Virus record (IMG/VR): IMGVR_UViG_2561511241_000007
Coordinates: 1 to 27,862 of that record
DNA length: 27,862 nucleotides
Strand: one strand, 5' to 3'
DNA from: a virus
Taxonomy: Duplodnaviria > Heunggongvirae > Uroviricota > Caudoviricetes
Shown: positions 1-26,971 of the stretch, in pieces
Layout: each line of letters begins with the position of its first letter
Position numbering within the stretch: the stretch's first letter is position 1
Made by a program: the position numbers and the translations under genes
Notes under the pieces: model-generated
Told to the model about the DNA's origin: nothing
Database searches by the model: none
Seen by the model: only the letters and a program-made list of their open reading frames with translations

Positions 1-582
1 TTACCCTATAGGTGCTACTGGCCATTCAATATCCGGTGCAGTTGTTGTATTAACACGGTTCAGCAACACCCGATACTTCTTCCAGGCTTCCAGCAACGAG
101 ATTTCTTCCTCCGTTGCGATTTCCAGATCTACAGCATCCTGAAGTGGCGCAATATGCTCACTGGCTACCTGCATCAGGCTGTTTTTTGTTTCTTCTGCCT
201 CCCGAATCCGGAACAGTTTTTCTGCTTCCGTATCCTTCACCCAGGCTGTGCCGTTCCACTTCTGATATTCCCCTCCCGGCGACAACCAGGTAACATTTTC
301 CGGTAACGGACCGAGTTCAGAAATAAATAACGCGTCGCCGGAAGCCACGTCATAAACCGTTTTACCCCGATGGTCTTCAACGAGATGCCACGATGCCTCA
401 TCACTGTTGAAAACAGCCACGAAGCCTGCCGGAATATCTGGTGGTGCAATATCGGTACTGTTTGCTGGCAGACCTGTATGAGGCGGAATATATGCGTCAC
501 CTTCACCAATAAATTCATTAGTTCCGGCCAGCAGATTATAAATTTTTATGGTCCGTGCTTGTTCACTCATTCTGAATGCCAT
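1..582 (-). CDS. tfa: tail fiber assembly protein (lambda Tfa-like)
   Basis: Complete 193-aa ORF (ATG at 582, TAA at 1-3); translation matches lambda Tfa as recalled; start overlaps the stf stop (TAATG). Confidence 0.9.
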
Positions 583-5252: not shown

Positions 5253-6435
5253 CGGAGGGTTTCGTGGTCATGTTCATCGGGGTGAGATAGACATCACCAC
5301 CGGGACGCGGATTCATATCTTCCAGGTCGCGGCAGTCATTAGGAGAGTAAATTCCCCAGTTGATCCCGGTGGCGTAGGCTTCAAAACGGGACTTCATATC
5401 CCCGCGCAGTAACGCCCCGGCGTTAAATTTGGCGTAATAAACGCCCTGCTTACTTTTTCGTACCAGTCCGGTGTTGATCCGCTGCTCAATGCGGGTCAGA
5501 TACGGCACCAGTGAATAGTTGATAAATCCCAGCCCCAGCTCTTCGATATTGTTGAAGGTGGCGCGATCGGTGTTCTGCACCATGTGCAACGGCACCCGAA
5601 ACAGACGACAGATTTCTTCAAGCTGAAACTTGCGGGTTTCCAGGAACTGGCTGTCCTCGGCGTTCAGCGCCATCGACTTCCAGTCCAGCCCCATCTCAAG
5701 GATCATCGGGCGGTGAGCATTGCCAAGCCTGGTGTGACGCTCCTCAAAATCTTTCTTCAGGCGCTCGTAAGCCTGATCTGACAGCGTCTGCTCTGTACGC
5801 AACACACCGGACGTCACCGCACCATTGCTGAACAGTCTGGCCCCGTGCTCTTCGGTCGCTGCCGCCAGCGATATTGCCTCGCGGGCATAGGCGATGGGAT
5901 TCAGCCCCACCAGTCCGTCCAGCGTCAGCGTGCGCACATGCCAGATATCCTCCTGGCTCAGTACATCCGTGGAGCCGTCCGGGAATGTGACCTGATAGAC
6001 CGGCTCCCAGCTACTGTTAAGCTTCGGTACCACACAGCCAGGATCGACGGGCAGCAGTTCAGCCACTTCGCCAAATGCTTTCACTTTGTAGGCGTAAAAG
6101 TTTCCCCTCAGGCACAGACAGGTGACCACCAGCTCCCAGAACTCCTGCGGCGTCATATATCCATTGGGATGCGTGGAGATCAGCTTATGCAGACGTTCGC
6201 CGGTGGCTCTCTGTTTCAGGCTGCCGTTCAGGTGATACAGATTGCAGGGCAACATCCCGACCGACTCTGCCAGCACCCTGACGCAGGAAAAAACCGCCGT
6301 CAGTCGCATGGCCCGCTGGCTGCTGATCTGCTTTCCGGTATAGGTGTCGTATGACAGCCCGATAGCATCCGCCAGCTCTGCTGGCGTGGTCACCGGCGCG
6401 TCACTTTTTCGTTGAAATAATCCCGAAAAGAACAC
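5194..6435 (-). CDS. portal protein, HK97 family
   Basis: 413-aa ORF downstream of the large terminase, size and position typical of a portal. Confidence 0.85.
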   Translation of the reverse strand: MFFSGLFQRKSDAPVTTPAELADAIGLSYDTYTGKQISSQRAMRLTAVFSCVRVLAESVGMLPCNLYHLNGSLKQRATGERLHKLISTHPNGYMTPQEFWELVVTCLCLRGNFYAYKVKAFGEVAELLPVDPGCVVPKLNSSWEPVYQVTFPDGSTDVLSQEDIWHVRTLTLDGLVGLNPIAYAREAISLAAATEEHGARLFSNGAVTSGVLRTEQTLSDQAYERLKKDFEERHTRLGNAHRPMILEMGLDWKSMALNAEDSQFLETRKFQLEEICRLFRVPLHMVQNTDRATFNNIEELGLGFINYSLVPYLTRIEQRINTGLVRKSKQGVYYAKFNAGALLRGDMKSRFEAYATGINWGIYSPNDCRDLEDMNPRPGGDVYLTPMNMTTKPSDGSKAGKQKDNANADETTS

Positions 6436-11650: not shown

Positions 11651-11682
11651 CTGTTAAAAGTATATTTACCGTTACAAATGGA

Positions 11683-11765
11683 CCGTCACCGGGGACTCGA
11701 ACCCCGCACCACAAAACAACAATACGTGTTATGCACTCTTACCCGATGAGTTAGTGACGGTTTTG
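11683..11765 (-). other. tRNA-like element (possible pseudo-tRNA)
   Basis: Minus-strand sequence has a perfect 7-bp acceptor stem (CCGTCAC/GTGACGG), D-stem, canonical T-arm (CGGGG-TTCGAGT-CCCCG) and a 3' TCCA, but an aberrant ~30-nt anticodon/variable region. Confidence 0.4.
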
Positions 11766-11812
11766 TGTTATGTGGGAATCCAGCCTGACGACAGAATTAC
11801 TGGAACACCTTG

Positions 11813-11845
11813 CAAAAAAAAGCCAGCCACCAGAGACTGGCTGGC
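11813..11845 (-). terminator. rho-independent terminator (minus strand)
   Basis: Stem GCCAGCC / GGCTGGC with a 10-nt loop, followed on the minus strand by TTTTTTTT. Confidence 0.65.
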
Positions 11846-12016
11846 AAATTACAAAGTTTAAATGATTCATCATACAATCGTCGTTACAGGGGAATCCTGC
11901 GGTGCAGCAAGATACAAAAATGTAAGCAAACCAACAATAAGCAAGCACAGCATATTCGGAATTAGTTATAATTTTAACGATGCAGTGCTTATTCAGCATG
12001 CAATTCTGCAAATTAC

Positions 12017-12043
12017 CAAAAAAAACCGCCTGCTAAGGCGGTG
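12017..12043 (-). terminator. rho-independent terminator (minus strand), downstream of the tRNA array
   Basis: Stem ACCGCC / GGCGGT followed on the minus strand by TTTTTTTT. Confidence 0.65.
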
Positions 12044-12403
12044 GTCAAATCAGTAAGTGCTGAAGAGTATTATTATAATACAAGTGAGGTGTCGGGTGCC
12101 TCCCGAAATACCTGACATTCCATCAGATACTGTAGTTTCCCGGCTAAACTACTTAAACCACCCCGCACATGGAGTTCACCTCATTTTGTGATGTTAACAA
12201 CATCGGGATAGTGCATAATCAGCCCCTGCCAGGAAATATCAAAAATCCCACCAATAATGCACTATTCCGATAGCGTCAAAAAACACAGCACCGAAATCAT
12301 AACTGGTCTCCGTTATAATTCGGGAGAGCGATAAAGGATATACGAGACCTTTCCCCGCGAAAAAAACGCCAGTGCTGAAAAACCTATACCTCATTTGTTT
12401 TTC

Positions 12404-12478
<75 letters not shown>

Positions 12479-12481
12479 ATA

Positions 12482-12559
<78 letters not shown>

Positions 12560-12560
12560 C

Positions 12561-12637
12561 TGGACCGCCACCGAGGACTCGAACCTCGCACACTCAACTT
12601 AAAGGGTTAACACTCTTTCTTGGTGAACTGGTGGCGG
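12561..12637 (-). tRNA. tRNA-like gene, anticodon uncertain (UUU read in a loop with C33), possibly degenerate
   Basis: Perfect acceptor stem and canonical T-arm (CGAGG-TTCGAGT-CCTCG); D-arm lacks canonical features and position 33 is C. Confidence 0.45.
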
Positions 12638-12638
12638 T

Positions 12639-12714
12639 TGGTGGCCCTTGCTGGATTCGAACCAGCGACCTGGCGATTATGAGTCGCTCGCTCTCACCAC
12701 TGAGCTAAAGGGCC
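12639..12714 (-). tRNA. tRNA-Ile2 / Met (anticodon CAU), ileX/ileZ-like
   Basis: Canonical 76-nt cloverleaf with perfect acceptor and T stems; closely resembles E. coli ileX as recalled. Confidence 0.85.
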
Positions 12715-16513: not shown

Positions 16514-16669
16514 TTACTCCTCAGGTTCGTAAGCTGTGAAGACAGCGACCTCCGTCTGGCCGGTTCGGATTCGTACCTCGCAGAGGTCTTTCCTCGTTAC
16601 CAGTGCCGTCACTATGACGGTTAAACAGATGACGATCAGGGCGATTAGCATCGCCTTTTGCTGCTTCAT
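16514..16669 (-). CDS. hokD: Hok/Gef-family small toxin (HokD/RelF-like)
   Basis: 51-aa product matches E. coli HokD as recalled; the frame is open a further 19 codons upstream to 16726. Confidence 0.9.
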   Translation of the reverse strand: MKQQKAMLIALIVICLTVIVTALVTRKDLCEVRIRTGQTEVAVFTAYEPEE

Positions 16670-17293
16670 AGCCTGCTTCTCCTTGCCTTTCGGCACGTAA
16701 GAGGCTAACCTAGATTTGCCGTTCATAGATTGAGCCTCAGATTAATGTTAAGCGTCTTGCAGGACGCGTAATGTTAACTGGGGCTTTTCTCTATCTGCCT
16801 TTGGTGTTCATGCCTGAGACAGATAGCCTCAAGCACCCGCAGCCATTCTACTTAACTCCCGTTACCTCGCCAATATGAAATCAGTCAGAAAGGCGATCCA
16901 TAAGAACAACAGCAAGGCAATAAATTGCCATTACAGCAGCAATAGCCAGCGCACATTTGAGAACCAGCACCACAACCTCCTGTATTGGACGTACACCAGT
17001 CCTGATAAATATGAGGCTGTCTCGTCAGTGATTCAATACAACTATTGGGTATAGTTTCTGTGATTTTGTTCTGTAGAAATGGAACACAACAACCAGTCAC
17101 CACCAGCACTTCTTTAAATACGCCAAGTCCGACGCAAGCTAACTTTCTAGTCCGCTTTGAGCGAAAAGCAGACTGTCACGCGTTGAAGTTAATTGTATTA
17201 CTTAGATAAACACTATCATTTTCCTGACGTTAAGTTGTATCTTTGATAGGATTAAAAAACGTATAGATAGCTTATGCTACTGAGGGAATAAAA

Positions 17294-18103
17294 ATGACGA
17301 AAATTAGTGAACGATGGAAGCACAATGGCATTACTGAAGGTTATTGCAATATTTGTGGGAAATATGGCTTGCTCACAAAAGATCATGTTCCTCCAAAGTG
17401 CGCCATAACCTTAGGCCCTGTTTTGCAGAAAACAGTTAGCGAATTTTTTGGTATTCAGGAACCAGTTAAACCATTAAATGCTAAAAATGGCTCTTATTTC
17501 AGAACCATTTGCAGCCACTGTAACAATAAGGTATTAGGTGGGCTCGATGTTGCAATTGAAAATGTAACAAAGTCCTTTAAAGAACAGTTAAGTCGATATA
17601 TGAATGGTATGAATGTATATCCATTCATTAGAATACCTTTTGATAGCATATCTTTCACTAAGGCTATGATTGGGCACGTGCTATCAGCAACTTCAGTTGA
17701 AGATTGTAAAAAAGAACCCGTAGATAGCCCCTTCTATACACCTTTAAAGGATTATGTTTTGGGTAAAAATTCAAGTTTTGAGGAAACTCATGATATTTAC
17801 TACTGGTTTTACCCACACAGAATGCACATATCCGCTCAAAGTGTAGCATTTATGAACGAAGGACATGTGGCATTTATTTGTGCTTTACATTTTTTCCCTA
17901 TCGGTTTTATTATCACAATGAAAAATGAAGGAACATACCCTGCCCACTCTACAAAATTAGAACTTGAAGATAAATTCCTTACATTTAATATGACCTCTAT
18001 AAATTATGAGTATACGACATTTCCATTTGTAAATCTTAAGGGAAACCAAATGTATGCGATAAGCAACGGTCATACTTGTGTGAGTTATCCAATAATTAAG
18101 TGA
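17294..18103 (+). CDS. HNH/zinc-finger nuclease-motif protein with an uncharacterised C-terminal domain (cargo gene)
   Basis: 269-aa ORF with a GAGGGA Shine-Dalgarno; N-terminal C-x2-C...DH...N...C-x-H-C-N pattern; much lower GC than neighbours; opposite strand to all flanking phage genes. Confidence 0.7.
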   Translation: MTKISERWKHNGITEGYCNICGKYGLLTKDHVPPKCAITLGPVLQKTVSEFFGIQEPVKPLNAKNGSYFRTICSHCNNKVLGGLDVAIENVTKSFKEQLSRYMNGMNVYPFIRIPFDSISFTKAMIGHVLSATSVEDCKKEPVDSPFYTPLKDYVLGKNSSFEETHDIYYWFYPHRMHISAQSVAFMNEGHVAFICALHFFPIGFIITMKNEGTYPAHSTKLELEDKFLTFNMTSINYEYTTFPFVNLKGNQMYAISNGHTCVSYPIIK

Positions 18104-18249
18104 CGGCTAAATCATACAATCTACGCATGTTCACTTTCTACATATACCATCTATAATGTCCGCTGTTGGCACAAAGCGGACAACCACGCTAGCTCTACCC
18201 TGTGCCACAAAATGTCAATTTGCATCTGAACTAATGCACTTTAATCTCG

Positions 18250-18672
18250 TCACTTCAATAAATACCGAACATCCCCCTGATAAAACGACAATATGCGCTG
18301 CATAACTTCACTCTTCCGGCACTCGCGACAGATTATGTTCTGACGCCTGTCGTAGCGACGTATTTCTCCGTCAGGTAATGACCAGATAAGGTCCGGATCA
18401 ACCGCAGATGGTTTCTTCAGCTTTGCCCTTGAGAGCTTTTTACGGGCATTTTGCCAGTCCTTACGCGCCTGTTCAGACGGGAATAACCCGTAACCAGAGT
18501 TGTATACATCGCCGCTGGCAACCAGCTCTCTTGCGAGAACGCTCATCAGATATCTTGTCGCACCTGTTTTGACTTCCAGTTGCCGTAACGTCTCACGCCC
18601 ACTCTGGCGTACGAGTTCAACAACCTGCCCTTTAATTTTTTCTCGCTCTTCTTGTGTAAAAACTTTTGCCAC
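18250..18672 (-). CDS. hypothetical protein
   Basis: 140-aa ORF immediately downstream of the O-like initiator, where a helicase loader would be expected; contains a CxxC pair. Confidence 0.45.
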   Translation of the reverse strand: MAKVFTQEEREKIKGQVVELVRQSGRETLRQLEVKTGATRYLMSVLARELVASGDVYNSGYGLFPSEQARKDWQNARKKLSRAKLKKPSAVDPDLIWSLPDGEIRRYDRRQNIICRECRKSEVMQRILSFYQGDVRYLLK

Positions 18673-18712
18673 AAGTCCTCCTGAAAATTACCTCATGACC
18701 AGAAATCAACAC

Positions 18713-19789
18713 TTACCCCCTGAAGCCCGGTGGAATTTCGGTATCCGGTTCAGAAATATGATTCACACAACGCTGGTTGTTCGTGCCGCTTACCGGGAGC
18801 AGCCAGGGGTTTTCAAAATTCCGGTCCGGTCCAAAAAACGTCGTCGCTCGCTGAACAAATTCCGTTCCCGTTTTCCCGGTAGCCGCAAGGTATCTTGCGT
18901 AACGCCTCACGCCATCCAGCATGGCCTCTGGTGACACCCCCTCGCGTAATCTGGCCTTCCAAGCACTGAAAGCGGATTTCTTCGGGTTTGCCCCAGCACG
19001 CAACGGGTATTCCCGCCAGACCTGTTCGAACACATCCGGATAATCCACTCGTCCCACAGGCTGCCCGGTGTTTTCCGGGACTACCCAATCGGCTTCCCGC
19101 TGAATGGCGGAATCGGCTTCAGGCTGCTGCAGTTGGTGTGATTGCTCCGGCCTTGCGGTCATCACCTGCTGCACAGCGCCCGAATCGGCTTTCAGCGCAT
19201 ACGCTGAATCGGCTTCCGGTGTCGTGCCTGCTGGCTGACCAAGATTGACGGTCTGAACATCCCCTGCCTGGTTCGTGGCGTTTTTTACGCCATGGACCAT
19301 AGTGTTTTGATCTTCTTGATCTGTATCTTTATCTGTATCTTTATCTGTCGTGACTCGTCGTGACATGTGCGTGACATTTCGTGACGCGCCGTGACAATCG
19401 CCATTTTGTTCCCGCTTTCTTTCCCTCTCTCGCTGCGCCCTCTTGCGCTCTGCAGGAGATTTTGCGGTTTGCGAAATATTGCCGTTGTCCTCTTTAAGCA
19501 CCTGGCGTTTTTCCCATCCAGTGATTAAATCACCATCAAGTACCCGCCCCTGCATCGTCTGCAAAATTGAATCAATTACCTCTTCTGTCACGTCGAGCGC
19601 ACTTGCCAAATCTTCTGTCGTGACATCAATGTGACCTCGCGTGACATTTCGTGACGCGCTCACCAGGAGGTGGATATACACTGCCATCACTGTTGCAATT
19701 GGCTGCCCTGACACCCTGGCAATTGTTCGCCACTTAGGGTCATTTGGCATGTCATGCCATAATCTGAGCCAGGCGTTAGCCATACTCAC
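18713..19789 (-). CDS. replication initiator (O-like) with internal origin
   Basis: 358-aa ORF in the O position after cro and ydaT-like genes; contains two clusters of direct GTGAC repeats at 10-11 bp spacing. Confidence 0.6.
   Translation of the reverse strand: MSMANAWLRLWHDMPNDPKWRTIARVSGQPIATVMAVYIHLLVSASRNVTRGHIDVTTEDLASALDVTEEVIDSILQTMQGRVLDGDLITGWEKRQVLKEDNGNISQTAKSPAERKRAQRERERKREQNGDCHGASRNVTHMSRRVTTDKDTDKDTDQEDQNTMVHGVKNATNQAGDVQTVNLGQPAGTTPEADSAYALKADSGAVQQVMTARPEQSHQLQQPEADSAIQREADWVVPENTGQPVGRVDYPDVFEQVWREYPLRAGANPKKSAFSAWKARLREGVSPEAMLDGVRRYARYLAATGKTGTEFVQRATTFFGPDRNFENPWLLPVSGTNNQRCVNHISEPDTEIPPGFRG
19349..19396. repeat. iteron cluster A: five direct (C)GTGAC repeats at 10-11 bp spacing
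   Basis: GTGAC at 19350, 19360, 19371, 19381, 19391; preceded by a tandem 12-bp repeat (ATCTGTATCTTT, about 2.5 copies, 19318-19347). Confidence 0.65.
19618..19660. repeat. iteron cluster B: four direct GTGAC repeats plus one inverted copy
   Basis: GTGAC at 19619, 19630, 19640, 19650; inverted GTCAC near 19586; the 19-bp GTGACATTTCGTGACGCGC is shared exactly with cluster A. Confidence 0.65.
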
Positions 19790-19854
19790 CTCTTCTGATA
19801 CCGAATCTTTTTACTCACGAGTTGCCGGAAGCGATTCGATATGGCTATTGTCAG

Positions 19855-20280
19855 TCAATGTACTGCCACAGCATTTCCTGCCGGGCCACCACGGTTCATC
19901 TGATTGAAACCGGCGATTGCCACTGCGACAAAATCATCAGCGTCTCTCACCAATCGCTCCCGCGTCTCCACCAGCTCCCGAAAATAAGCTGAACTGTGGC
20001 TGCGCATTCTGGCCACCAGCAAAGGTGGCATTGCCTTTTCGATCGCTGGTAACAACGCCTGAATTTTTTCAACTGCATCAGGGGTGTCTTTCTCTACCCA
20101 GCGGAAAATTTTCTGGGTATTGCGAGCCAGGGCTTCCGGATGGCTGTCGTCATACAGTTCAGGAAACGTCATACCCAACTCAAAATAAGCCTGGGTTATT
20201 CCAGCTGCTGGAACTTTTTCGCCATCAGGACGCGCCCAGGCATTCATCGCCATGCGGATGTGTTCATGCTTGATTTTCAT
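19855..20280 (-). CDS. YdaT-like protein (CII functional analogue family)
   Basis: 141-aa ORF starting MKIKHEHI, as I recall for Rac YdaT; sits directly downstream of the cro-like gene. Confidence 0.6.
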   Translation of the reverse strand: MKIKHEHIRMAMNAWARPDGEKVPAAGITQAYFELGMTFPELYDDSHPEALARNTQKIFRWVEKDTPDAVEKIQALLPAIEKAMPPLLVARMRSHSSAYFRELVETRERLVRDADDFVAVAIAGFNQMNRGGPAGNAVAVH

Positions 20281-20507
20281 GAATCCCCCCCTTGGTTAGA
20301 AGGCGGATTATGATCAGAACCGGGAATGACAACCGTCGGTATGTGTAACTCATATTTGAGCGCCCCGGCAGTGACAGCCTGAATTAGCAACGCCCATTTC
20401 CACGGAACCTCTTCCCCCCACATGCTGACTGTGGTTTTTGACGTTCCTAGAGCTGCGGCTGTTTTAACAACTCCGCCAAAATAGCCTAATACTTCTGATT
20501 TTTTCAT
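20277..20507 (-). CDS. Cro-like HTH regulator (YdaS/DicC-like)
   Basis: 76 aa from ATG 20507 with a GGAG Shine-Dalgarno; HTH region VVKTAAALGTSKTTVSMW; divergent from the CI gene. Confidence 0.7.
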   Translation of the reverse strand: MKKSEVLGYFGGVVKTAAALGTSKTTVSMWGEEVPWKWALLIQAVTAGALKYELHIPTVVIPGSDHNPPSNQGGDS

Positions 20508-20598
20508 GAGTCGCTCCATAAAACTGAACGCCAAAAGTTTAATAATCAAAACCAAAGAAAGTCAAGAAACAAAACCATCTGTGTTTTAAAATCAAAAC

Positions 20599-21237
20599 AT
20601 GAGCAAGCAAACAATATCTGAACGCATAACCCAACGTATGCATGCGCTAAACCTGAAAGGCAAAGACCTTGTCAATGCCACTGGCGCATCAAAAGGCTCC
20701 GTAAGTCAATGGATGAACGGTGGAGGAGTGCCGTCCTCGCGTTACATAAGTTCACTGGCAAAGATATTGAAAGTAAACGAAAATTGGCTTCTTAATGGAG
20801 GAGAGTTAAATACAGGTGATTCGCTTGATCTATCTTTACCGCCGATAAAAACGGTTCCGCTACTATCACTTCAGCAGGCAGCAAGCTGGAGTGATTATAT
20901 GAAAAATTCCTCAATAACCTCTTGTGTGCAGCTTGTCGGAGAAATCCCGGCCAATACCTTTGCAGTTGTTCTAGAGAGTGACAGTATGTCAACATCTGGT
21001 GGGGGAGTTTCCATCCCAAATGGTTCAACAGTTTTTGTTGATCCCGATCGAACCGTACAACCAGGAAATATTGTCCTTGCCTTACCCAAAGGGACCACAA
21101 CACCTGTCATTCGTAAACTGGAGATAGAAGGGCCGGATATTCTTTTAGTCCCCACGAATCCTCGCTACCCTTCAATTATGCTGGATGATCTATCTTGCAT
21201 ATTGGGCGTATGCTTTAAAATTCAACAAGATATTTAA
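20599..21237 (+). CDS. CI-type repressor (HTH plus S24 LexA-like peptidase domain)
   Basis: 212-aa ORF with an N-terminal HTH and a C-terminal S24-like autocleavage region; no obvious Shine-Dalgarno, so possibly leaderless like lambda cI. Confidence 0.85.
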   Translation: MSKQTISERITQRMHALNLKGKDLVNATGASKGSVSQWMNGGGVPSSRYISSLAKILKVNENWLLNGGELNTGDSLDLSLPPIKTVPLLSLQQAASWSDYMKNSSITSCVQLVGEIPANTFAVVLESDSMSTSGGGVSIPNGSTVFVDPDRTVQPGNIVLALPKGTTTPVIRKLEIEGPDILLVPTNPRYPSIMLDDLSCILGVCFKIQQDI

Positions 21238-22403: not shown

Positions 22404-22460
22404 TTTCTGGTGACGTTTGGCGGTATCAGTTTTACTCCGTGACTGCTCTGCCGCCATTTT
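22404..22460 (+). ncRNA. dicF: DicF small RNA (ftsZ-targeting antisense sRNA)
   Basis: Sequence matches the 53-nt K-12 DicF as recalled except the last base, followed by a T-tract; lies between ydfC-like and dicB. Confidence 0.7.
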
Positions 22461-25600: not shown

Positions 25601-25804
25601 ATGAGCAGCTTATTTTTAACCGAAGATGAATTGCTAATATTAACGGGCTGCAAATATGCAAGCCACCAGCGAAAATGGTTAATGGAAAACGGGCTTCCGT
25701 TCTATACCAATCGTAGTGGCAAACCGATTGTCAGCCGGGATCTATTTACCTGCAATAAAACTTTACCACCACGCGAGGTAGAGCCGAATTTTGGTGCGAT
25801 CTGA
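25601..25804 (+). CDS. putative excisionase
   Basis: 67-aa ORF immediately upstream of and overlapping the integrase start (ATGA-type overlap). Confidence 0.5.
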   Translation: MSSLFLTEDELLILTGCKYASHQRKWLMENGLPFYTNRSGKPIVSRDLFTCNKTLPPREVEPNFGAI

Positions 25805-26829
25805 TGGGAAGACGAAGGAAAAATCCTGAACACGAAAAATTACCTCCAAATGTATACCCAAATAAATATAGTTATGTATGGAAACCAACATCCAGAGAAT
25901 CTGTCACACTAACCGCCATCAAGGATGGTTTAGCTGCTTTATGGAAAAAGTATGAGGAAACTGTAAATAATCGCGATCGTGCAATGACATTCGGTCGCTT
26001 GTGGGAAAAATTCCTCGCCAGCGCCTATTACAGTGACCTCAGTCCAAGAACACAAAAAGATTATCTGCAACATCAAAAAAAGTTGCTTGCCGTATTCGGT
26101 AAGGTGCCGGCAGATTCCATAAAACCAGAACACATCCGTCGATACATGGACAAGAGAGGGGAACAGAGTAAAACGCAAGCCAACCATGAAAAAAGCAGTA
26201 TGTCCCGCGTTTACAGTTGGGGGTATGAGCGAGGGTACGTGAAGGCTAACCCATGTGCAGGTGTAAGTAAATTCAAGGCCAAAAACCGCGAACGATATGT
26301 AACCGACAAAGAATACCAGGCAGTATTAAGCGTTGCACCTCTTCCTGTTTTTATCGCAATGGAAATTGCCTATCTGTGTGCAGCGAGGGTTTCCGATGTG
26401 TTATCGCTGAAATGGGAGCAGATAGGAAACGACGGGATCTTTATCCAGCAAGGGAAAACAGGGAAAAAACAGATAAAAGCATGGAGTCCACGATTACAGG
26501 CGGCGATCGAAAAAGCAAAACAGTTACCAACATCCGCCTATGTAATCAGCAATCAATACGGCAACCGATATGTGTACAAAGGCTTTAACGAAATGTGGGT
26601 AGAAGCAAGAAATCGCGCAGGCAAAATTTCAGGTATTTTAACCGACTTCACCTTTCATGATCTGAAGGCGAAAGGAATTTCAGACTATGAAGGAAGCAGT
26701 CGGGATAAGCAACTTTTCTCTGGTCACAAAACCGAGGGGCAAGTGCTAATCTATGACAGGAAGGTTAAAGTTTCACCGACACTTGATGTCCCGTTACCTG
26801 AAAATATTCCAAGAAAATATTCCAAGTAA
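25804..26829 (+). CDS. int: tyrosine-type site-specific integrase
   Basis: 341-aa ORF with lambda-integrase-like organisation; ends 53 bp from the 3' end of tRNA-Ser. Confidence 0.9.
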   Translation: MGRRRKNPEHEKLPPNVYPNKYSYVWKPTSRESVTLTAIKDGLAALWKKYEETVNNRDRAMTFGRLWEKFLASAYYSDLSPRTQKDYLQHQKKLLAVFGKVPADSIKPEHIRRYMDKRGEQSKTQANHEKSSMSRVYSWGYERGYVKANPCAGVSKFKAKNRERYVTDKEYQAVLSVAPLPVFIAMEIAYLCAARVSDVLSLKWEQIGNDGIFIQQGKTGKKQIKAWSPRLQAAIEKAKQLPTSAYVISNQYGNRYVYKGFNEMWVEARNRAGKISGILTDFTFHDLKAKGISDYEGSSRDKQLFSGHKTEGQVLIYDRKVKVSPTLDVPLPENIPRKYSK

Positions 26830-26881: not shown

Positions 26882-26971
26882 TGGCGGAGAGAGGGGGATT
26901 TGAACCCCCGGTGGAGTTGCCCCCACTCCGGTTTTCGAGACCGGTCCGTTCAGCCGCTCCGGCATCTCTCC
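26882..26971 (-). tRNA. serU: tRNA-Ser (anticodon CGA), serU-like
   Basis: 90-nt minus-strand sequence with a long variable arm and anticodon loop UCUCGAAAA, ending CCA; matches serU as recalled. Confidence 0.9.

Follow-up and report, generated by a model that had tools for sequence, protein, structure and literature searches.

In bacteriophage lambda the origin iterons are repeats of about 19 bp, with internal symmetry and spaced approximately two helical turns apart, and in Bacillus phage SPP1 the origin oriL is located inside gene 38. Iteron origins of plasmids, which go with winged-helix initiators of the RepA/pi/TrfA type (as in pPS10, R6K and pSK41 RepA), typically have intergenic iterons of about 17-22 bp together with DnaA boxes. 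The lambda origin sits midway along the O gene, where the iterons and an AT-rich tract form the O-some; lambdoid and Stx phage variants have from four to six iterons, and extra iterons add residues to the O protein (PMC7466680). The SPP1 protein G38P binds oriL (PMC5615212), and the C-terminal domain of Escherichia coli DnaT (primosomal protein I) forms filaments on single-stranded DNA (ssDNA) in the preprimosome (PMC13377028). Here we analysed a stretch of viral DNA of 27,862 nucleotides (Caudoviricetes; IMG/VR record IMGVR_UViG_2561511241_000007, positions 1 to 27,862), called the window throughout, which is a lambdoid E. coli prophage similar to phage Tritos. The initiator gene of this prophage (18713..19789, minus strand) contains two arrays of short, helically phased repeats, and we propose that the segment is most probably a bipartite iteron replication origin with an adjacent unwinding element, situated inside the gene of its own initiator; its activity is predicted from the sequence and its comparison with homologues.

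Repeat arrays in the initiator gene

Coordinates are positions in the window; the plus strand is the strand as shown, and the gene direction is that of the minus strand. On the plus strand, the pentamer GTGAC starts at 19350, 19360, 19371, 19381 and 19391 in cluster A (steps of 10, 11, 10 and 10 bp) and at 19620, 19631, 19641 and 19651 in cluster B (steps of 11, 10 and 10 bp), and the real core, present in eight of the nine direct copies, is the hexamer CGTGAC. Read in gene direction, cluster B (19619..19655, minus strand) consists of four direct (T/C)GTCACG copies with steps of 10, 10 and 11 bp, and cluster A (19349..19395, minus strand) of five direct copies with steps of 10, 10, 11 and 10 bp, abutting an AT-rich tract. 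A lone inverted iteron (GTCACG on the plus strand, 19587-19592), which did not figure in the initial annotation of this DNA, is found 33 bp past cluster B's last direct copy, on the promoter-distal side, and encodes V67-T68.

The initial annotation had reported two phased GTGAC clusters about 270 bp apart inside the initiator open reading frame (ORF), an identical 19-bp unit in both, a 12-bp tandem repeat beside cluster A, and the translation of these elements into repeated peptides. Both clusters and their 10-11 bp steps were verified, three copies of the tandem were found (36 bp, 19314-19349, within the AT-rich tract and abutting cluster A), and SRNVTRGHIDVTT, SRNVTHMSRRVTT and DKDTDKDTD were right translations of the minus-strand ORF 18713-19789. 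The identity between the clusters was also confirmed, but not its length, because the identical unit has 21 bp (GCGTGACATTTCGTGACGCGC, at 19369-19389 and 19639-19659, 270 bp apart).

The phasing was compared with that of 300 dinucleotide-preserving shuffles of the window, taking as statistic the longest series of copies of a single 5-mer, whichever it was, with steps of 10-11 bp. The maximum was five in the window, with four in the second array, whereas it was two in 264 and three in 36 of the 300 shuffles; since no shuffle exceeded a chain of three, phasing by chance could be excluded. GTGAC is enriched overall in the window (71 copies observed versus 46 +/- 6 expected), and the chain scan found no other phased repeat array in its 27.8 kb.

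The AT-rich tract (19305..19349, no strand assigned), which is asymmetric in purines and pyrimidines, has a GC content of 0.30 and low stability, and is likely to be the unwinding element of the putative origin. In gene direction it reads (GATAAAGATACA)x2 and then GATCAAGAAGATCAA, and codes for DKDTDKDTDQEDQ; its DKDT portion corresponds to amino acids (aa) 149-157, in a disordered linker of the protein. No 40-mer of the gene is less stable than that at 19305-19344, which has a free energy (dG) of -43.4 against -57.0 +/- 3.7 kcal/mol, 3.7 standard deviations off the mean, and which, ranked by instability, is among the top 0.3% in the window.

Conservation of the layout in homologous genes

A scan of one genome per species gave 60 homologous loci in gamma-, beta- and alpha-proteobacteria, which had the N-terminal ~150 residues in common and varied in their C-terminal halves; 56 of these loci were put in register and analysed. 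A scan of viral contigs with the family alignment gave only copies that were 98-99% identical, too much alike for a study of divergence; they were used just for the population count (80 E. coli copies). About 45 of the 56 homologues had two phased clusters of one short repeat, at coding nucleotides (nt) ~135-166 and ~385-460, and in most genes the commonest 6-mer in the first 600 nt was a repeat at 10-11 bp spacing. The iterons fell into three classes, GTCACG, CGAACGC and GTAACGC, with an ACG(C) core common to all. The class was identical in both clusters of every gene, and the position and orientation of cluster A were kept in all three classes. In addition, an inverted copy was found at the identical coding nt 199 in 19 of 25 homologues of the GTCACG class.

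Conservation extended to the tract. In every locus of the class comparison, a run of (GATAAA)n, of (GATACA)n or of a similar hexamer rich in purines came directly after the last iteron of cluster A, even in hosts with 65% GC, and these runs encoded DKDKDK, DTDTDT or EEREE-type peptides. The 12-bp tandem of the window is what this family-wide (GATAAA/GATACA)n tract looks like locally. The iterons numbered 4+5 in 79 of the 80 near-identical E. coli copies; the length of the tract varied among the copies.

Phased repeats in homologous initiator genes, on which the initial annotation had made its proposal depend, were thus present at the same two positions in distant bacteria. That proposal compared the layout with a lambda origin carrying a duplicated iteron set; the arrangement of an origin inside the initiator gene stood, but a recent duplication did not, since the bipartite layout is ancient and extends across alpha-, beta- and gamma-proteobacterial prophages. 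The 21 bp that are identical in both clusters reflect an iteron pair that the two have in common.

In two relatives (P0033 and P0047) a different N-terminus was joined to the C-terminal half of the window protein right after the tract, and because the junction falls there, the N-terminal domain, the iterons and the tract can be regarded as one exchangeable module. The gene that follows the initiator differed among loci: it was lambda-P-like (PF06992) in L084, DnaC/IstB-like in L120 and a DUF6475 gene in L112 and L110. A circular 50.9-kb lambdoid phage of Pseudomonas aeruginosa, deposited as a plasmid, had a 4+4 GTCACG layout followed by a DnaB-like helicase gene; its record as a plasmid is only suggestive with regard to autonomous replication by the module.

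Some loci departed from the common arrangement. In Stenotrophomonas (L136) and Dyella (L138) the first cluster was at coding nt 93-113, elsewhere in the N-terminal domain, and encoded the peptide LSRNVTVGH, and in Pseudothauera (L137) the domain had no cluster, the only array being one of seven CGAACG copies at nt 337-429. Most of the homologues in which no phased iterons were obvious retained an ERG loop motif and some had a long DK repeat, with (GATAAA)x8 in L121; two of them (L123 and L135) had a different, GIY-YIG-like-looking insertion after residue ~105.

A further motif, C5-7 N3-5 C5-6 N1-8 G4-6, was seen just downstream of the AT tract in seven of the 56 loci (L088, L092, L094, L095, L101, L104 and L122, at coding nt ~445-550; for example CCCCCCTTACCCCCCTGAGGGGG), and also in L142 at ~5440-5470. 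Its background frequency is 0.005 per 270 nt, and the window lacks it. It is a potential C/G hairpin encoding PPxxPPxG and, in the origins that carry it, may signal helicase loading or priming.

This initiator family is poorly annotated. Several deposited genomes of Pseudomonas phages (PQ738200, PQ758389, PQ758388 and OR683406) annotate the homologous initiator region as two separate hypothetical proteins, and the initiator of the P. aeruginosa plasmid record CP137943 is missing from the PLSDB gene table, a table known to be incomplete.

Selection on DNA and on protein

Relative codon entropy at conserved residues was compared inside and outside cluster B by the Mann-Whitney test in 19 GTCACG-class genes, from genomes with a GC content of 0.40-0.65. 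Entropy was 0.14 inside and 0.79 outside (p=7.7e-6), and the result was replicated in the CGAACGC class (0.08 inside and 0.72 outside, p=9.8e-6). The codons for V49 (GTC, 19/19), T50 (ACG, 19/19), G52 (GGT, 19/19) and H53 (CAC, 18/18) were fixed, whereas the third position of R51, the sole spacer third position in the test, was free; variation was limited to spacer positions. The V67 codon of the inverted copy was GTG in 16 of 16 genes. Moreover, the GTCAC core is used in all three reading frames, as G-TCA-C (S-R), GTC-AC (V-T) and GT-CAC (G-H or C-H). The frozen synonymous sites together with the three-frame reading therefore indicate selection on the DNA, the peptide repeats being a by-product, and the peptide period is of seven residues because two iterons make 21 bp, or seven codons. 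In a loop of the DNA-binding domain even the synonymous sites are frozen, probably because the same nucleotides also form the putative binding-site array of the family.

Proteins of the different classes differed most clearly at three places: the iteron-encoded loop (aa 46-57), a stretch of nine residues (aa 103-111), and positions 112 and 119. The nine-residue stretch was present in the GTCACG class, absent in CGAACGC and mixed in GTAACGC. At position 119 the classes GTCACG, CGAACGC and GTAACGC had Q, W and Y or F, respectively, and positions 112 and 119, both in a basic helix, were the only class-discriminating single-residue substitutions outside the loop. Residues of the recognition helix or of the wing were also considered as class determinants and rejected, because none of them separates the classes. 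It is doubtful, and we would give it little weight, that the iterons of cluster B encode a part of the initiator that helps to read those same iterons. If the loop did contact DNA, binding site and reading head would share nucleotides and a change in the iteron would alter its reader automatically; families could then switch origin specificity among GTCACG, CGAACGC and GTAACGC without a non-functional intermediate.

The initiator protein

The gene encodes 358 aa if translated from a GTG; with the ATG at 19783, which is the start annotated in phage Tritos, the protein has 356 aa. The gene is 99.9% identical to the one that Escherichia phage Tritos annotates as 'Replication protein, N-terminal phage replisome organiser'. 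In PHROGs it matched phrog_3729, 'replication initiation protein' (E=1.6e-256), with weaker matches to 'replisome organizer' and 'DnaD-like helicase loader'. The Pfam scan of the 358-aa protein gave no family at E<=0.01, and no match to Phage_rep_O (lambda O / P22 gp18) or to PF17948, the DnaT DNA-binding domain; up to E<=10, the N-terminal half matched PF09681 and HTH_Crp_2 only. The alignment of the N-terminal 131 residues with PF09681 (Phage_rep_org_N) runs end to end, residues 7-125 falling on positions 1-119 of a profile of 121. The initial annotation had called the gene O-like, which holds for its position and role but not for its homology, as this is a winged-helix protein of the replisome-organiser type; it does not belong to the lambda O family, and its kinship with PF09681 is remote at best.

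The protein is laid out as a winged-helix N-terminal domain (aa 3-97; 19499..19783, minus strand), which is the presumed iteron reader, a basic helix (aa 112-128, SPAERKRAQRERERKRE; 19406..19456, minus strand), a disordered linker of ~115 aa, a helical C-terminal domain and a DnaT-like tail (aa 335-358, ending in SEPDTEIPPGFRG; 18716..18787, minus strand). An AlphaFold2 (AF2) model, built from 15 homologues, was confident over residues ~10-97 (predicted local distance difference test, pLDDT, 82-93) and ~246-334, included the basic helix, and was disordered over 130-245 (pLDDT ~30). The N-terminal domain is predicted to fold as a winged helix, like the N-terminal domain of DnaD and plasmid RepA. 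In the model, cluster B codes for S46-T57, in a loop of the DNA-binding domain (aa 46-57) that joins helix 31-47 to helix 58-65, and cluster A codes for C132-T148, in the disordered linker; both arrays therefore sit in coding sequence that tolerates insertions, and insertions or deletions of ~7 residues occur in homologues exactly at the two clusters (P0003, P0022 and L083).

The likeness of the tail to the DnaT C-terminus comes from NCBIfam, whose DnaT equivalog matched the tail only (E=0.0015, far under the cut-off), and from a profile search of the PDB, which gave only weak DnaT-tail matches (chains 6aep, 2ru8 and 9zbt, E 0.4-1.8). Many relatives that share the N-terminal module and have other C-terminal halves carry a genuine PF17948. 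These matches suggest that the tail might connect the initiator with the primosome or the helicase-loading machinery of the host.

The linker-coding part of the gene also contains four exact copies of AATCGGCTT on the plus strand (19087, 19111, 19183 and 19207; span 19087-19215), arranged as two pairs with 24 bp within a pair and 96 bp between pairs. An inverted copy with one mismatch is located at 18970-18978, and there is no further exact copy in the 27.8-kb window. The copies code for EADSA/KADSG peptide repeats, and a 32-residue block between them is missing in some relatives (P0006); they may serve as a second binding-site set, or be nothing more than a duplicated peptide.

Gene neighbourhood

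The cro gene (20277-20555, minus strand; Pfam P22_Cro) and a YdaT/CII-like gene (19855-20280, minus strand; Pfam YdaT_toxin, and phrog_163, CII-like) lie upstream of the initiator in the same rightward-type operon (19855..20555, minus strand), and a repressor of the S24 family (20599-21237, plus strand; Pfam) is divergent from them. The initiator thus occupies the position of O, after cro and the cII-like gene, and is followed by a DUF977/Ren-like gene (18250-18672, minus strand; Pfam and PHROGs). Transcription from the immunity region passes through the proposed origin.

Elsewhere in the window, Rfam matches were found to the sok antitoxin RNA of a hok/sok module (16664-16838, minus strand), to the DicF small RNA (sRNA) (22405-22456, plus strand), in a division-inhibition region of the Qin/Kim type beside dicB-like genes, and to the IS009 sRNA family at the left end (41-239, minus strand). 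The late region bears a cluster of phage-borne tRNAs (Val-AAC, Gly-UCC, Thr-UGU and Met-CAU; 11679-12714, minus strand), three of the four being confirmed by Rfam. A tRNA-Ser(CGA) (26882-26971, minus strand), probably the attachment site, adjoins an ORF of 341 aa at 25804-26829, which by its position looks like the integrase; Tritos annotates an integrase at the equivalent end.

Alternative explanations for the arrays

The alternative that survives best, improbable as we judge it, is that the arrays are operator or copy-control sites, bound by the initiator or by another early phage protein and acting in autoregulation, attenuation, titration of the initiator or exclusion of related phages, and that replication starts elsewhere. 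The sites are indeed inside a transcribed early operon, and the iterons of plasmids generally serve also as control elements. Furthermore, lambda ori iterons on plasmids are reported to give a phenotype of replication inhibition or exclusion (PMC3349717). Nevertheless, that cluster A invariably borders the gene's least stable tract is the mark of an origin and not of an operator, no other phased array occurs in the 27.8-kb window, and the N-terminal domain, the iterons and the tract travel as a module with different helicase or loader partners. Control and origin functions can, besides, coexist.

It is very improbable that the repeats reflect selection for a needed peptide (SRNVT and similar) and have no function at the DNA level. 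SRNVTRGH.DVT and SRNVT are conserved in many homologues, and the ERG-like loop motif persists even in members without iterons; but the synonymous sites are near-invariant in the repeats and near-saturated in equally conserved codons elsewhere, in two independent classes, and a core of 5-6 nt encodes S-R, V-T, G-H and C-H in its three frames. Neither the spacing of 10-11 nt, which is not a multiple of three, nor the location of cluster A, in a disordered and otherwise hypervariable linker, is expected from a peptide requirement, which the codon tests largely refuted.

Just as little probability was given to the idea that the repeats are recombination substrates, producing in-frame length variants or module exchange and having no role in initiation. 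The blocks of ~7 residues by which the homologues mentioned above differ at both clusters, the module junction just past the tract and the polymorphic length of the tract would all agree with it; however, neither the stable iteron number in the E. coli copies nor the strong purifying selection on the core fits a slippage substrate, and iterons would be expected to cause variation in length as a side effect, as seen when the O protein of lambda is set against that of Stx phages. Finally, we rejected as the least probable of all an action of the conserved nucleotides in RNA (as mRNA structure, the site of an RNA-binding regulator or an sRNA site controlling translation of the initiator) because, even though conservation of synonymous sites alone cannot tell a DNA from an RNA function, two mRNA segments folded no better than their shuffles (z=-0.68 and -1.11), the repeats are direct rather than inverted and one DNA helical turn apart, and no Rfam family matched the region.

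Several observations also weigh against the proposal of a bipartite origin itself. Binding of the iterons by the initiator is suggested by two kinds of evidence only, linkage and covariation, and the residues that discriminate the classes (aa 103-111, 112 and 119) are confounded by phylogeny. About seven of the 56 homologues had no obvious phased iterons (L108, L111, L121, L123, L126, L127 and L135), and therefore the protein family can exist without iterons or with degenerate ones. The helical phase between the clusters was not significant at a period of 10.5 bp (Rayleigh R=0.23, p=0.09), and its significance at 10.0 bp was driven by iteron-number steps and related sequences. The PF09681 match scored 16.5 bits (E=0.0089), below the gathering cut-off of 23.3. 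No helicase or loader gene was found beside the initiator in the phage of the window, and no DnaA box with one mismatch or fewer occurs within 18000-20700. To our knowledge, none of the 24 phage records with this N-terminal domain has a mapped origin, and no published description of an origin for this initiator family was found in the searchable literature; the paper on Eru phages (PMC8044961) makes no mention of iterons, repeats, a replication origin, a replisome organiser or DnaT.

Proposed mechanism and significance

On the other side stand the features generally expected of an iteron origin: there are at least three helically phased direct repeats, a low-stability AT-rich neighbour, and selection at the DNA level together with covariation of the classes. 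If the segment is a bipartite origin, derepression would lead to transcription from the cro-side promoter and the initiator would be made. Its winged-helix domain, possibly helped by the adjacent basic helix, would then bind the (T/C)GTCACG iterons, four direct and one inverted in B and five in A, where successive iterons face roughly the same side of the DNA because they are spaced one helical turn apart. Both arrays would be occupied and probably bridged by protein-protein contacts over the intervening ~225 bp, with looping of this DNA, giving an O-some-like complex. The stress of the nucleoprotein complex could melt the adjoining (GATAMA)n tract (19305-19349), and the C-terminal half would pass the opened DNA to the helicase-loading machinery of the host, which is proposed here because the phage has no helicase or loader gene beside the initiator.

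The analysis provides a concrete candidate origin for a very common replication module, since over 5,700 sequences from E. coli and Shigella belong to the closest protein cluster alone. Relatives are found in O157 prophages and in prophages of Pseudomonas, Aeromonas, Bordetella and other bacteria, for which no mapped origin was found. The rule set of two arrays at fixed positions in the gene, three iteron classes and a (GATAMA)n tract could allow origins, and likely groups of replication specificity, to be annotated in such prophages from sequence only. The locus is also an unusually clean natural case of a constraint on DNA dictating the sequence of a protein.

Comparison with known systems

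The closest likeness in arrangement is to the origin inside O of lambda. In both, the origin (a proposed one in the window) lies in the initiator gene of a pR-type operon, downstream of cro and cII, and a direct-repeat array is followed in gene direction by an AT-rich tract, which is the order found in the window. What the iterons encode falls in a tolerant part of the protein, and the N-terminal, origin-specific and C-terminal, partner-specific halves are exchangeable, here as judged from P0033 and P0047. In contrast to lambda, the initiator of the window is not a homologue of Phage_rep_O, and its iterons are asymmetric cores of 6-7 bp at one helical turn (10-11 bp). There are two arrays ~270 bp apart, one of them in the coding sequence of the DNA-binding domain, whereas lambda has a single cluster, and the AT tract consists of repeated hexamers, (GATAMA)n. 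No P-type loader gene comes directly downstream, where a DUF977/Ren-like gene is found instead; a P-like gene does follow in L084.

With SPP1 G38P and the lactococcal replisome organisers, the protein of the window shares an N-terminal winged helix of the type of the DnaD N-terminal domain, binding to the phage origin being a feature of G38P. It aligns over the full length of PF09681 and with the 'replisome organizer' PHROGs, and NCBI names its relatives 'phage replisome organizer'. It differs from this type in that its PF09681 score is under the cut-off, its hosts are Proteobacteria, it has another C-terminal half and its gene is followed by none dedicated to a loader or helicase; for SPP1, no description of a bipartite layout, of these iteron sequences or of a (GATAMA)n tract was found. 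The differences from iteron plasmid origins are that the cores have 6-7 bp and lie inside coding sequence, and that no DnaA box was found (18000-20700). The likeness to E. coli DnaT is limited to the tail, the last ~24 residues (SEPDTEIPPGFRG), with non-significant E-values, and the protein of the window has no PF17948; by analogy, the ssDNA filaments of DnaT suggest that the DnaT-type C-terminal halves found in the initiator family may hold the melted tract.

On this comparison, the best reading is that the segment, of which no description was found in the searchable literature, would work like the lambda origin in O and the SPP1 oriL in gene 38, as a distinct variant of them. What sets it apart from the known systems is the combination of short, asymmetric iterons at one helical turn, a conserved bipartite layout, three covarying iteron classes and a putative unwinding tract made of hexamer repeats.

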